Positions 2,078 through 6,214 of a DNA stretch of 23,038 bases are shown piece after piece. The notes beneath the pieces are model-generated. The model saw only the letters and a list, made by a program, of their open reading frames with translations, was not told the origin of the DNA and ran no database searches. Position numbers and translations under genes: made by a program. Position 1 is the first letter of the stretch, and each line of letters starts with the position of its first letter. Source of the stretch: Candidatus Omnitrophota bacterium (GTDB lineage: Bacteria > Omnitrophota > Gorgyraeia > JABMRG01 > JAFGKX01); NCBI GenBank assembly GCA_020354945.1, contig CP070655.1, positions 983,524-1,006,561 of the forward strand, given 5' to 3'.

Positions 2078-2146
2078 AAAAATTGGGACAGGTACAATTT
2101 TTTAACTCACGGCAATACGGAAAAAATTGTGCCTGTTCCAATTTTT
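2078..2146. repeat. REP-like long inverted repeat (GGGACAGGTAC family), probable uvrA terminator
   Basis: 26-nt arms aaaaattgggacaggtacaatttttt (2078-2103) and aaaaaattgtgcctgttccaattttt (2121-2146), 2 mismatches, 17-nt loop. T-tracts follow on both strands. Touches the uvrA stop codon. Confidence 0.8.
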
Positions 2147-4958
2147 AAAGGATTTTTTTTAAATACTGACCGGTGAAGGATTTTTTCTTTTTAGTAACTT
2201 CTTCAGGCGAGCCGCAGGCTACAATCTCGCCGCCGTTATCTCCGCCTTCAGGTCCAAGGTCAATTAGATAATCTGCGCTTTTAAGGACATCCAGGTGATG
2301 CTCGATGACTATCACCGAATTGCCCTGCTCGACAATGGCATTTAGAACTGAAAGAAGTTTGTGGACATCGTCAAAATGTAACCCTGTAGTAGGTTCATCC
2401 AATATATAAAGCGTATTTCCTGTGGCTCTCTTGCCAAGGTAAGCTGAAAGCTTAACCCGCTGGGCTTCGCCGCCTGAAAGGGTAGTGGCGGATTGGCCCA
2501 CTTGTATATATCCTAAGCCGACATCTATTAATGTCTTAAGTTTAGATTTAATTCTGGGTATATTTTTGAATAATTCATAGGCTTCATCAACTGTCATTTC
2601 TAATACATCTGCAATATTTTTACCTTTGAATTTTACTTCAAGGGTCTGCCGGTTAAATCTTTTGCCTTTGCATACCTGGCACATAATATAAACATCCGGC
2701 AAGAAATGCATCTCTATTTTTTTCACTCCGTCACCGTTGCACGCATCGCATCTGCCGCCTTTGACATTAAAGCTGAATCGGCCGGGTTTATAGCCGCGCA
2801 TCCTAGACTCGGAAACCCTGCTAAAGATATCCCTTATGTAACTAAACACCCCGGTATATGTAGCTGGATTGGAACGAGGCGTTCTTCCTATAGGCGATTG
2901 GTCAACTACAATTACTCTATCGATATTTTCAACACCAACTATTCTTTCATGCTTACCAGGAACAAGGGGAGAACGATAAAATTTCCTGGCCAGAGCTCTG
3001 TATAAAACCTCATCAATTAAAGTAGATTTGCCGGAACCTGAAACCCCGCTTATACAAGTTAACACACCCAGTGGAATCTCTACGTCTATATTTTTAAGAT
3101 TATGCTCCCTGGCCCCTTTTATTATAAGCCTTTTTCTATTTTTATGGGGGCGTCTTTCTTCGGGTACCGGAATAGATAATTCGCCATTCATATATTTTGC
3201 AGTTAGAGAACCTTTACATCTAAGCAAATTTTTTAATGACCCGCTATATACAACCTCGCCTCCGTTTTTGCCAGCTCCCGGGCCTAAATCGATAATATAA
3301 TCGGCGTTCCTTATTGTAGATTCGTCATGCTCTACTACCAATACAGTATTTCCCAAATCTCTTAACGCGTATAGGGTATCCAGAAGTTTTGAATTATCCC
3401 TTTGATGTAAACCGATACTTGGCTCATCCAATACATATAAAACGCCGACTAAGCCGGCGCCTATTTGAGTTGCCAATCTAATCCTCTGGGCCTCTCCGCC
3501 GGATAGGGTCTGGCTCATCCTGTCTAAAGTAAGATAATTTAATCCGACATTAATCAAAAAATGCAATCTGTTCTTTAATTCTTTCAAAACTAATCTTGCT
3601 ATCTGGGTCTTTTCTTTACTTAATTTAAGATTTTCAATAAAATTAAGTGTTCCTATTATGCTCAATTTGCACGCATCTGCAATATTCTTTCCGTCTATTT
3701 TTACCGCTAAGGACTCTTGTTTAAGACGGTTGCCTTTACATTGCGGGCAGGGGCGCATTGACATAAAACTATAGATGAAATTTTTTATATACTCGCTCTC
3801 TGTCTGCCTGAATCTGCGTTCAAGATTCGGAATAATGCCTTCGAAATATCTATCGGCATTCTGTTCTTCAGAACCATACAGTACGACCCCTTGAGTCTTT
3901 TTCGGCAATCTATTAAAAGATGTATCTAAATCAAAACCGTAATCATAACTTAAATCCCTCATCATGCGATGATAATACAAAAGTAAAGACTTACCGCCTT
4001 TTCGCCAAGGCTCAATAGCTCCACCTCTTAAAGATTTAGACTTATCCGGTATTATCAAGTCGGGGTCTATTTTCATCTTATGGCCTAAACCACCGCAACC
4101 TGGACACGCCCCATAAGGGGAATTAAATGAAAACATTCTCGGTTCTAAAGAACCGTAACTTATTCCGCATTTGGGGCAGGCGTTTTGGGTGGAGTATAGG
4201 ACTTCGTAGTTCGTAGTTTGTGGTTTGTGGCTCGTAGAAGGTTGTTTGGCAACAATGAGGAGGCCTTCTCCGGCTTTTAAGGCAGTTTCTACTGAATCGG
4301 CAAGGCGCTGTCTTATTTCCTTTTTAAGGATTAATCTATCGACTATTATTTCTATATTGTGTTTGAGCTTCTTATTCAATTTTATTTTTTGGCTAAGGTC
4401 ATATATATTTCTGTCTACCCTGACTCTCACAAACCCATCTCTTTTTGCTTTTTGAAATAATTGAATATACTCGCCTTTTCTACCCCGCACTATAGGAGCA
4501 AGTATCATTATCGGAGTATCAAAAGGCATAGAAAATATGTGCTCAACTATCTCCTGAGGGCTCTGGCTGGATATTTTCCTGCCGCATTTATAGCAATAGG
4601 GCTCGCCTACGCGTGCAAAAAGCAATCTTAAATAATCATAAATTTCTGTAGTAGTTCCGACTGTGGAACGGGGATTTCCTCCTGCAGCGCGCTGTTGTAT
4701 GGATATAGTCGGCGATAATCCTTCTATATAATCAACATCCGGCTTCTGCATCTGCTCCAAGAATTGCCTGGCATAAGCAGAAAGGCTTTCAACAAACTTA
4801 CGTTGCCCATCAGCATATACAGTGTCAAAGGCTAGGGATGATTTACCGGACCCGGAAACACCGGTTATTACTGTCAGCTTATTTCTGGGGATGTTTACGT
4901 TTATTGACTTTAGATTATGCTCCCTAGCCCCTCTTATAGTTATGTGCTCTTTTCCCAT
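2145..4958 (-). CDS. uvrA: Excinuclease ABC subunit A
   Basis: Two Walker A motifs GVSGSGKS, ABC signatures LSGGEAQR, Walker B motifs LDEPS/LDEPT, GAREHNLK motifs and CxxC zinc fingers. Start set at ATG 4958 (MGKEHITIRGAREHNLK); the track's GTG at 4979 lies inside the upstream hairpin repeat. Confidence 0.98.
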   Translation of the reverse strand: MGKEHITIRGAREHNLKSINVNIPRNKLTVITGVSGSGKSSLAFDTVYADGQRKFVESLSAYARQFLEQMQKPDVDYIEGLSPTISIQQRAAGGNPRSTVGTTTEIYDYLRLLFARVGEPYCYKCGRKISSQSPQEIVEHIFSMPFDTPIMILAPIVRGRKGEYIQLFQKAKRDGFVRVRVDRNIYDLSQKIKLNKKLKHNIEIIVDRLILKKEIRQRLADSVETALKAGEGLLIVAKQPSTSHKPQTTNYEVLYSTQNACPKCGISYGSLEPRMFSFNSPYGACPGCGGLGHKMKIDPDLIIPDKSKSLRGGAIEPWRKGGKSLLLYYHRMMRDLSYDYGFDLDTSFNRLPKKTQGVVLYGSEEQNADRYFEGIIPNLERRFRQTESEYIKNFIYSFMSMRPCPQCKGNRLKQESLAVKIDGKNIADACKLSIIGTLNFIENLKLSKEKTQIARLVLKELKNRLHFLINVGLNYLTLDRMSQTLSGGEAQRIRLATQIGAGLVGVLYVLDEPSIGLHQRDNSKLLDTLYALRDLGNTVLVVEHDESTIRNADYIIDLGPGAGKNGGEVVYSGSLKNLLRCKGSLTAKYMNGELSIPVPEERRPHKNRKRLIIKGAREHNLKNIDVEIPLGVLTCISGVSGSGKSTLIDEVLYRALARKFYRSPLVPGKHERIVGVENIDRVIVVDQSPIGRTPRSNPATYTGVFSYIRDIFSRVSESRMRGYKPGRFSFNVKGGRCDACNGDGVKKIEMHFLPDVYIMCQVCKGKRFNRQTLEVKFKGKNIADVLEMTVDEAYELFKNIPRIKSKLKTLIDVGLGYIQVGQSATTLSGGEAQRVKLSAYLGKRATGNTLYILDEPTTGLHFDDVHKLLSVLNAIVEQGNSVIVIEHHLDVLKSADYLIDLGPEGGDNGGEIVACGSPEEVTKKKKSFTGQYLKKIL
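4203..4237. repeat. Five heptamers in frame within uvrA
   Basis: ttcgtag ttcgtag tttgtgg tttgtgg ctcgtag. On the minus strand it encodes (S)TSHKPQTTNYE(V). Same TTCGTAG unit as the argH-argG intergenic array. Confidence 0.75.
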
Positions 4959-4960
4959 AG

Positions 4961-5030
4961 AAAAAACTGGGACAGGCACCTATTTTTCTGCTGTTATTTT
5001 TAAAAAAATAGATGTCTGTCCCTAATTTTT
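4961..5030. repeat. REP-like long inverted repeat (GGGACAGGCAC family), terminator-like, directly upstream of the uvrA ATG
   Basis: Arms gggacaggcacctattttt (4969-4987) and aaaaatagatgtctgtccc (5004-5022), 2 mismatches, flanked by A/T tracts. Clearly related to the element at 2078-2146. Confidence 0.8.
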
Positions 5031-5044
5031 AAAAAGACTTTTAT

Positions 5045-5293
5045 TTATCTCTTCTTCTTCTTCTTCTTTCTTCCGCCGCGGGCCATCTTTGCCATAGATA
5101 CATCGCCCTTTTTATCGACGAAATAGAGATAACCCTTCTTTCTCTTGATGCCGGCTTTTACAACCATCTTTGGCGAACCGCCTTTTTTCTTTCCGCGGGC
5201 CATCTTTGCCATAGAAACGTTGCCTCTTTTATCTACATAATATAGATATCCCTTTTTTCTCTTTATGCAGCATTTTAAAACCTTTGTTGCCAT
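5045..5293 (-). CDS. Small, very basic hypothetical protein (82 aa) with two 39-aa tandem repeats; putative nucleic-acid-binding protein
   Basis: IKRKKGYLY(Y/F)VDK(R/K)G(N/D)VSMAKMARG occurs twice; 31 K/R against 3 D. Strong SD GGGAGGTG (5310-5303) and its own promoter. Differences between repeat copies are largely conservative or synonymous, which supports real coding. Confidence 0.88.
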   Translation of the reverse strand: MATKVLKCCIKRKKGYLYYVDKRGNVSMAKMARGKKKGGSPKMVVKAGIKRKKGYLYFVDKKGDVSMAKMARGGRKKKKKKR

Positions 5294-5332
5294 CTAATTT
5301 TTCACCTCCCTTCTATTTTTAACTTTGCAATT

Positions 5333-5361
5333 ATTTTACTCTATTTTTCCGACGAGTGCAA
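5333..5361 (-). promoter_or_regulatory. Putative sigma70 promoter of the small basic protein gene (TTGCAC-N17-TAAAAT)
   Basis: -35 at 5361-5356, -10 at 5338-5333, exact 17-nt spacer, AT-rich upstream region. Confidence 0.65.
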
Positions 5362-5383: not shown

Positions 5384-5399
5384 TTTTGCATATGCAAAA
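5384..5399. promoter_or_regulatory. Perfect 16-bp palindrome TTTTGCATATGCAAAA, candidate operator
   Basis: Exact dyad between the nadX stop codon and the -35 box of the small-protein promoter. Confidence 0.4.
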
Positions 5400-5401
5400 T
5401 T

Positions 5402-6214
5402 TCATGTACCCATCTTTACGGGACTTAATATTTGTTTTAGGGTGGCTATAGCGGAAAGGACCGCCAGGTAGCTGGTTTTTAGATTATCAGGTGCTGGGAC
5501 ATTTTCTGTTTTAGTAATTAACTTACCAAAATCCCCACAGACCTCAACCTGATGGGAATTTCTTTTATAAGAAGGCGATGTAATTATAGTTACGCGTGTT
5601 TTATTAGCGCCTATACCGGTTAAACTTAAGAGGGCTGATACATTTATATTTTTAGGAAATGCCTTTACTGCCTCGGCGGCTGGGCCATCAAATAATATCT
5701 TCTCGCCCTTTATCTTTTTAAGGTTTATCTTCTTTTTAATTATATAAGGTGCGCCCTCCAGTCCTCTTGGTGGCTTCCTGGTTATAAGCCTTGCGCTCCT
5801 AATCTTAGCCTGACTTGCTGCTTTTATAGCGTCGACACCGCCTATAGCGCCGCTGGGAAGATAGACTTTAATCCCTCTCTTTTGCGCTAATTCAAATAGT
5901 CTTTCATGCCCCAATAATCCACCCACGCTCATTAACATTACATCTTTCTTTGCATTAATTGCATTTTTTAAAATATGGGCGCTTACCTTTGCTGAAGCTG
6001 CCTCTATTGCCAAATTGCTCTTTTTAATTAAATCTAAGAGTTCCAAGCTGGCAGGTTTTGATTTAAGCCTCCTGCGTAATCTTTCTAATTTTTCCTTATC
6101 GATATCGCAAAGTCCTGCAATCCTGGCCCTGTCTTTTAGCTCCTTATCAATAACTTTTGCCAGTTTCGATCCTATAACCCCGCAACCTATTATGCCTATC
6201 TTCAATTTATTCAT
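5402..6214 (-). CDS. nadX: L-aspartate dehydrogenase (NAD biosynthesis)
   Basis: Rossmann motif GIIGCGVIG, EAAS, MSVGGL, PSGAIGGVD, TRKPP, FPKNINV, KTSYLA. Overlaps the nadA stop codon (ATGA). Confidence 0.93.
   Translation of the reverse strand: MNKLKIGIIGCGVIGSKLAKVIDKELKDRARIAGLCDIDKEKLERLRRRLKSKPASLELLDLIKKSNLAIEAASAKVSAHILKNAINAKKDVMLMSVGGLLGHERLFELAQKRGIKVYLPSGAIGGVDAIKAASQAKIRSARLITRKPPRGLEGAPYIIKKKINLKKIKGEKILFDGPAAEAVKAFPKNINVSALLSLTGIGANKTRVTIITSPSYKRNSHQVEVCGDFGKLITKTENVPAPDNLKTSYLAVLSAIATLKQILSPVKMGT

Follow-up and report, generated by a model that had tools for sequence, protein, structure and literature searches.

The window (the whole stretch of DNA analysed, 23,038 nucleotides long) carries a small minus-strand gene coding for an 82-aa protein, a member of a large, unnamed and highly conserved family whose tiny, basic members are built of tandem repeats, are predicted to be all-beta, and occur in many ultra-small bacteria and archaea. 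Judging from its sequence, the protein may well be an abundant, non-specific nucleic-acid-binding protein, with DNA as the probable ligand. This reading is drawn from the charge of the protein, the histone-H1-like tails and a ParB fusion found among its relatives, and the spread of the family across two domains of life. Literature searches, proteome tables in supplements lying outside them, returned no description of the family.

The small gene and its product

The product contains 24 lysine, seven arginine and three aspartate residues, i.e., 31 Lys and Arg against three Asp and Glu, which gives a computed net charge of +28 and a pI of 10.75. It is built of two repeats of 39 aa each (aa 3–41 and 42–80), identical at 25 of the 39 positions. 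The duplication is also visible in the DNA as a direct repeat of 97 nt, 80% identical (5076–5172 and 5193–5289, spacing 117), both copies of which open with an identical 23-mer, at 5076 and 5193. The internal duplication and the extreme basicity claimed in the original prediction are thus confirmed, and all the elements it listed, i.e., the repeats, the 23-mer, the charge, the Shine–Dalgarno (SD) sequence, the promoter-like site, and the downstream hairpin, are present. The coordinates of the features are given in the table. The C-terminal tail is Lys/Arg-rich also in the relatives of the protein, where its length varies. No signal peptide is seen in the 82-aa translation, so that by sequence the protein is cytoplasmic. 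The gene is present in a single copy in its own genome, which is 1.138 Mb in size and assembled in one contig.

Lysine is encoded in the small gene by AAG 17 times and by AAA seven times, while the genome and its ribosomal genes favour AAA by about 2:1. In such a Lys-rich gene the preference for AAG may serve the avoidance of slippery poly-A runs.

Table. Location of the small gene, its parts, and the flanking elements in the window
Feature	Position	Strand	Basis and details
Small-gene CDS (82-aa basic tandem-repeat protein)	5045..5293	(-)	Open frame and translation; stop TAA 5045-5047, ATG 5291-5293
Repeat 1 (aa 3-41)	5171..5287	(-)	Predicted strands aa 3-6, 16-20, 26-30 (AlphaFold); DNA copy 5193-5289
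Repeat 2 (aa 42-80)	5054..5170	(-)	Predicted strands aa 42-45, 55-59, 65-69 (AlphaFold); DNA copy 5076-5172
Lys/Arg tail (aa 74-82)	5048..5074	(-)	Translation; pLDDT block means 65 (residues 71-80) and 64 (residues 81-82)
Shine–Dalgarno GGGAGGTG	5303-5310	(-)	9 nt ahead of ATG 5291-5293
Promoter-like site	5333..5361	(-)	Putative, read from the sequence; TTGCAC 5356-5361, 17 nt, TAAAAT 5333-5338
Terminator-like hairpin with U6 tract	4961..5035	(-)	Gap between the small gene and uvrA; inverted repeat I1; core 4969-5022, UUUUUU 4961-4966
uvrA, downstream neighbour	2145..4958	(-)	Pfam UvrA_inter, UvrA_DNA-bind; start most likely ATG 4956-4958
Aspartate dehydrogenase-like gene, upstream neighbour	5402..6214	(-)	Pfam Asp_DH_C, NAD_binding_3

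Conservation and distribution of the family

A search of 5.8 billion proteins gave 1165 candidates, of which 1150 are homologues of the 82-aa protein at E ≤ 0.01, the best 120 being 73–93% identical to it. Few of the homologues bear a descriptive name in their source; they are called "hypothetical", with the one exception of a JGI label, predicted GNAT acetyltransferase. Comparisons of the window gene with its orthologues in 80 related loci, one per locus, showed saturation of the synonymous sites in 71 cases, while non-synonymous differences ranged from 0.03 to 0.20 in the 30 closest comparisons printed; the median dN/dS was 0.14 over the seven comparisons with usable dS. The small gene is under purifying selection. 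A lack of homologues under such selection, named in the original prediction as a ground for abandoning it, is contradicted by the 1150 homologues and by the saturated dS at these low values of dN.

The family profile matches at least 1060 clusters at E ≤ 0.001 and 332 at E ≤ 1e-10 among 1.84 billion representatives (50% identity), and a scan of one genome per species gave at least 570 confirmed loci, the best 80 of which show 54–92% identity over the best segment. The labels of loci among the matches listed comprise Omnitrophota, Woesearchaeota, Nanoarchaeota, Marinimicrobia/Fidelibacterota, Elusimicrobiota, Ignavibacteria, Nitrospirae, Bdellovibrionota, and Myxococcota. In the phylum of the window (labelled Omnitrophota), 223 of 401 sampled genomes have a match (217 of 340 when only high-quality genomes are counted), and the distribution there is nearly all-or-none by family, with 60/60, 16/16, and 13/13 genomes in some families against 0/25 and 0/11 in others. 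A match was also found in 157 of 201 sampled genomes, mostly as one copy per genome, of the DPANN phylum that holds the genome of locus L059 (labelled Woesearchaeota), and in 13 of 101 of the phylum that holds the genome of locus L082 (labelled Myxococcota). The archaeal contigs are genuinely archaeal, since the neighbours of the small gene there are of archaeal type (HerA, NurA, Hef, OapB, OapC). A tree based on 76 columns is poorly resolved: the Fidelibacterota group together as a single clade (100/99), and rows from archaea appear at scattered places among those from bacteria.

Because bacteria and archaea carry the protein at high identity, its target is more readily pictured as something that both possess, e.g., duplex DNA or generic RNA, than as a partner confined to one domain. 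In its size, charge and strong conservation the protein resembles small ribosomal proteins, which would suit a basic protein that binds RNA or associates with ribosomes, for example as an RNA chaperone, a hibernation-type factor or an accessory component of the ribosome. A role of this kind is possible, though we regard it as unlikely: identity of 54–92% across bacteria and DPANN archaea is hard to square with domain-specific ribosomes, and the all-or-none presence by family within one phylum (60/60 versus 0/25) also speaks against it.

The two-repeat unit is the standard form of the family. Single-repeat forms are limited to ten matches of 31–36 aa, which are probably fragments. A phage family was considered and rejected, as only ten loci match in the scan of viral contigs.

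Two loci labelled Deltaproteobacteria (L012) and Halanaerobiales (L023) show the gene order of the Omnitrophota type and fall within the Omnitrophota rows of the tree; both are probably mis-binned. In three Woesearchaeota-labelled loci (L058, L007, and L059), the synonymous divergence between the two repeats is only 0.24–0.35, the median for 81 genes being 0.73. This low divergence suggests intragenic conversion in that lineage.

Expression signals

The near-perfect SD sequence described for the small gene, GGGAGGTG, is indeed present at a spacing of 9 nt, and the strong SD and the single-gene layout are conserved in the relatives. When a strict pattern is applied, 55 of 80 related loci show an SD-like site ahead of the aligned start, those failing it among the 40 printed rows having variants of the GGGGGTG or GGGGTGA type, and an ATG occupies the aligned start position in 73 of the 80. 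A correctly placed GGAGGTG is found ahead of only 27 ORFs genome-wide. These include groEL and rpsB, whose SD sequences are no stronger than that of the small gene, a point in favour of the RNA-binding or ribosome-associated role considered above; they include also ordinary genes, e.g., corA, so that the strong SD is only a mild hint of high expression. The codon adaptation index calculated against the ribosomal operon, by which the small gene ranks 895th of 1086, is uninformative here, because the ribosomal reference set is itself unbiased, its genes choosing codons for Lys, Arg, and Gly in the same way as the genome does on average.

Another of the 27 ORFs preceded by a perfect GGAGGTG codes for a 276-aa HEAT_2/HEAT_PBS protein (locus L113, positions 934312-935139 of the genome, minus strand), a possible lead to a partner of the small protein in view of the archaeal cluster, described below, in which a structurally matching part is joined to HEAT repeats of this kind.

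The promoter proposed upstream of the gene, TTGCAC-N17-TAAAAT, is there as written, but its -35 hexamer is weak, agreeing with the consensus at three of six bases, for which reason the consensus promoter scan did not list it and the site counts as promoter-like only. A perfect 16-nt palindrome, TTTTGCATATGCAAAA, at 5384–5399 occupies the space between the -35-like hexamer and the stop codon of the aspartate dehydrogenase-like gene (5402) and may represent an operator or a terminator stub.

Downstream of the gene, the terminator-like hairpin previously noted proved to be strong: the RNA of 4969–5022 folds with a ΔG of -30.6 kcal/mol (z -5.1), none of 200 shuffled sequences folding as well, and is followed by the U6 tract. 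A simple terminator scan missed it, presumably because its 12-nt loop exceeds the limit of 3–8 nt. In 47 of 80 related loci the gene is followed by a hairpin of -10 kcal/mol or lower and then by a T-run.

The genes of nucleoid-associated proteins (NAPs) are described in PMC11390915 as being generally single-gene operons. The layout of the small gene, a single-gene unit equipped with an SD, a promoter-like site and a terminator-like hairpin of its own, supports placing its product among NAPs. The properties that define the class, i.e., small size, basic character, and a single-gene transcription unit, are found here as 82 aa, a charge of +28, and expression signals of the gene's own.

Gene neighbourhood

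The window displays one long run of minus-strand genes comprising rplM, rpsI, argCJBDFGH, lysA, dapF, dapA, dapB, an aminotransferase gene, folK, panC, panD, nadA, the aspartate dehydrogenase gene, the small gene, uvrA, and a gene for a TPR protein. Among the best 80 loci, a homologue of the aspartate dehydrogenase gene lies directly upstream of the small gene in 44, and uvrA is found downstream within three genes in 40 (27 at +1, 12 at +2, and one at +3). All 40 have the Omnitrophota-type order panC, nadA, aspartate dehydrogenase, small gene, uvrA, and in several of them genes for glycosyltransferases, TPR proteins, peptidase M20, DUF2079 or radical SAM proteins stand between the small gene and uvrA. 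The neighbours are unrelated in all of the 23 scanned loci of other phyla except L021 and L022, two near-identical loci of another lineage in which uvrA lies directly upstream of the small gene, and no uvrA is found nearby in the scanned loci labelled Woesearchaeota, Fidelibacterota, Elusimicrobiota, Myxococcota or Bdellovibrionota.

The functional tie to uvrA suggested in the original prediction is not upheld by this Omnitrophota-type gene order with its intervening genes and by the unrelated neighbours in other phyla; the adjacency is best read as inherited gene order and not as functional coupling. A dedicated accessory of nucleotide excision repair working with UvrA would account for the 40 loci with uvrA downstream, 27 of them with the two genes adjacent, and for its upstream position in L021 and L022. 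Nevertheless, such a role is very improbable, given that the 40 loci share the synteny of the whole region, that the aspartate dehydrogenase gene is the tighter neighbour, that unrelated genes have been inserted before uvrA in several loci, that the window has a strong terminator-like hairpin between the two genes, and that the scanned loci of five label groups of other phyla have no uvrA in the vicinity.

The likely ATG of uvrA (4956–4958) lies 3 nt past the U-tract of the hairpin and is not preceded by an SD sequence, while an alternative GTG start given by ORF calling (4979) falls inside the hairpin stem.

In the loci of the Fidelibacterota type, a gene for an Rce1-like membrane protein of about 1130 aa is the conserved downstream gene (10 of the best 80 loci), and in the archaeal loci the neighbours are assorted. 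An aminoacyl-tRNA synthetase gene within two genes of the small gene in four of the 23 other-phylum loci, and rplA in one, would be consistent with an RNA-binding or ribosome-associated protein, against which it counts that the small gene never lies inside a ribosomal operon among the loci examined.

In L007 and L059, both labelled Woesearchaeota, the small gene is located no more than two or three genes from those of the origin-associated OapB and OapC, in L007 also near a gene for a HerA-like ATPase, and it may be close to the replication origin in these archaea. In the single-contig genome of the window (1.138 Mb, completeness 89%) no match to Bac_DnaA (PF00308) was obtained, the control giving matches in 13 of 14 reference genomes, and the cumulative GC skew is noisy with a minimum near 880 kb.

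Sequence families and predicted fold

The description of the protein as uncharacterised is borne out, as it has no match above threshold in Pfam, NCBIfam or the PDB sequences. Its best Pfam match, DUF5050 (PF16472), reaches 14.5 bits against a gathering cut-off of 27, which places the protein outside that family; a six-frame search of the genome with DUF5050 found the small gene alone, at 19.7 bits, also below the cut-off of 27, and among 56 diverse family members ten gave weak matches (best E 0.0041). The NCBIfam search of the protein gave noise only. Ribosomal L24e (NF034186), at 13.2 bits and E 0.064, lies far below its cut-off of 73, and this lack of a ribosomal family match is a further argument against a ribosome-associated protein. 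The Atlas clusters, for which Pfam 38.1 was used in annotation, bear the name "hypothetical protein" throughout and have no common family, and a profile of 26 close members found nothing among PDB sequences at E ≤ 10.

Two well-known DNA-binding families were considered and rejected. HU/IHF (Bac_DNA_binding, PF00216) does not match the 82-aa protein even at E ≤ 10, and the predicted model has no helices; the one PF00216 (HU) match of the genome lies elsewhere (558626-558892). The histone fold (CBFD_NFYB_HMF, PF00808) likewise gives no Pfam match, the model consisting of six strands and no helix.

An AlphaFold model of the protein, predicted with an alignment of 26 close members, has a mean pLDDT of 85.3 and a pTM of 0.66 and comprises six strands, three per repeat, without any helix. 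The homologous first pair of repeats (residues 1–70) of P0123, a larger family member, is predicted with pLDDT block means of 95–98. The proposal that each repeat is a small beta module and that the two pair is therefore borne out at the level of models, in which each repeat has three predicted strands and the two together are predicted with confidence as a single unit. P0123, with its six repeats, was also folded to look for closure of three pairs into a six-bladed ring; the model as a whole has a pTM of 0.33 and only its first pair, which has alignment depth, is confident, so that it speaks neither for nor against closure. P0123 has no relatives of similar length. A three-copy prediction made with alignment A2 and without controls gave no answer (score 0.00, mark 0.42) and is likewise neutral.

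Searches with the predicted fold gave a best E of 0.72 with Foldseek and a best Z of 3.2 with VIA-align against 48,161 chains, none reaching Z ≥ 5, and a structural re-alignment of the Foldseek candidates gave a best Z of 2.9. The weak matches are mostly beta-propellers, led by the YWTD propellers of LDLR (Z 3.2) and LRP4 (Z 2.9). The others are alpha-crystallin sandwiches and ribosomal uL6-like chains (Z 2.4–2.7), the latter being in line with the RNA-binding or ribosome-associated alternative. The likeness suggested earlier to the small beta-sheet proteins of archaeal chromatin finds no support, since no Sul7d- or Cren7-like chain appeared in any fold search and the best score (Z 3.2) belongs to beta-propellers. 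For the five-stranded SH3-like barrel of Sul7d and Cren7 there was no chain in the Foldseek and VIA-align results and no Pfam match, which, being the lack of a weak match, does not exclude the fold.

A profile of the 56 diverse members, run against the PDB, matched chains of the LRP6 YWTD propeller in register with the blades, with a whole-sequence E of 3.4e-5 that is the sum of five weak stretches (best i-E 3.2). The YWTD family itself (LDL-receptor class B, PF00058) has no match in the genome of the window at E ≤ 10. In its sequence motif and in its period of about 40 residues, each repeat recalls a propeller blade. This likeness may be convergent, because the same hairpin motif also matches Cache domains, as in the sCache_2 match on P0123. 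P0123 also carries the precomputed Pfam accession PF27482, which may or may not relate to the two-repeat unit and is mentioned in none of the papers searched.

The unit in larger proteins

The two-repeat unit also occurs as a part of larger proteins. In P0177 it is located C-terminally and joined to ParB_N and HTH_ParB. Members from GC-rich lineages (P0141, P0261, P0262, P0240, and P0152) have long H1-like tails of 50–100 residues rich in Ala, Lys, Pro, and Arg. In P0188 the unit is followed by a transmembrane segment and OmpA, and in P0246 it is combined with DoxX; in these two proteins, as well as in P0122 and P0143, the units lie on the predicted cytoplasmic side of the membrane. In a 78-member cluster of Thermoplasmatota, a structurally matching N-terminal part (TM 0.80) is joined to HEAT_PBS repeats. 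The fusions examined, the ParB fusion included, are singleton clusters, and such singletons could be gene-call or assembly artefacts.

P0122 (886 aa) has eight repeats both by eye and by a stricter regular expression, and P0123 (354 aa) has six by eye and five by the stricter expression. The copies are arranged in pairs with acidic linkers or lie on the cytoplasmic side of a transmembrane protein.

Against the NAP reading it counts that no known DNA-binding fold is matched, that HU is already encoded in the genome, and that the fusions are singletons. The membrane (OmpA-like, DoxX) and HEAT fusions would also fit a protein- or lipid-binding module. The unit might serve generally for docking onto some other polyanion or partner, for example anionic membrane lipids, polyphosphate or a protein with HEAT repeats, in which case the free 82-aa form would be an adaptor and not a chromatin protein. 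The units on the predicted cytoplasmic side of four membrane proteins, the Thermoplasmatota cluster, and the Rce1-like protein encoded downstream in the Fidelibacterota-type loci all agree with this, yet we consider it improbable, because the examined fusions are singletons, DNA is the partner suggested by the H1-like tails and the ParB fusion, and no partner gene is conserved across phyla.

Proposed mode of action

Non-specific binding of nucleic acid is consistent with the way in which charge is distributed in the family. The median net charge is +25 in the 120 closest homologues and +12 in 76 short representatives. The best-conserved positions are the scaffold residues Y18, G24, Y57, D60, and G63, while the basic residues shift their position, as is expected for electrostatic binding that lacks specificity. 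In the proposed mechanism, a rigid two-lobed beta scaffold would display Lys/Arg-rich loops (the I-K-R-K-K segment ahead of the aromatic strand), together with a basic Gly/Lys-rich linker containing an S-P-K motif and the poly-Lys tail. Through the loops, linker and tail, the protein would touch the phosphate backbone of nucleic acid irrespective of sequence. With DNA as the more probable partner, the protein, expressed from a single-gene unit of its own, would be associated with the nucleoid, where it would neutralise charge or compact the DNA.

The 82-aa protein coexists with HU in its own genome. In the DPANN sample, the module and a histone occur together in 124 genomes, the module alone in 33, a histone alone in 34, and neither in 10 (Fisher p 0.84); the presence of the module is thus independent of histones, and the module does not replace a missing chromatin protein. 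No complementary distribution of the two is accordingly seen in the DPANN sample.

The C-terminal beta-pinwheel of GyrA is basic. The family might form an unrecognised class of chromatin proteins shared by bacteria and archaea (small-genome Omnitrophota and DPANN), in which units resembling propeller blades, in place of helices, would compact or wrap DNA on a basic beta surface, possibly as an oligomeric ring like the GyrA pinwheel; we offer this as a speculation with little probability.

Significance and comparison with known systems

The family constitutes a gap in annotation, as it is conserved, widespread, and unnamed, being present in about three quarters of the sampled genomes of the DPANN phylum and in more than half of those of Omnitrophota. 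Were the protein an architectural one that binds nucleic acid, the prokaryotic chromatin proteins would gain a new all-beta scaffold, and the finding would bear on genome packaging in ultra-small cells. Were it a natural two-blade relative of propellers, it would be of interest for the origin of repeat folds from short peptides. It is easily tested, with 82 residues, no cofactor and many natural variants.

In being small, very basic, and encoded in a single-gene unit with strong translation signals, the protein resembles NAPs such as HU/IHF, Sul7d, Cren7, and Hc1, and some members of the family share Lys/Ala/Pro-rich tails with the histone-H1-like Hc1. It has no match to any of these proteins in sequence or fold, and its predicted helix-free structure, all-beta with two three-stranded units, sets it apart from HU and from the histone fold. 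With the blades of YWTD and DUF5050 proteins it shares a repeat of about 39–42 aa in which an aromatic strand is followed by a D-x-x-G turn and a second strand; it differs from the YWTD blades in having only two units of three predicted strands each instead of four, and all the scores remain below the family thresholds. RSL, the Ralstonia solanacearum lectin, is a secreted sugar binder. Like the RSL-type lectins, the 82-aa protein would be a two-sheet monomer derived from a tandem duplication. According to PMC10306066, RSL is a trimeric six-bladed propeller whose monomer consists of two four-stranded sheets, and its pI is near-neutral, whereas the protein described here is cytoplasmic by sequence and carries a charge of +28.
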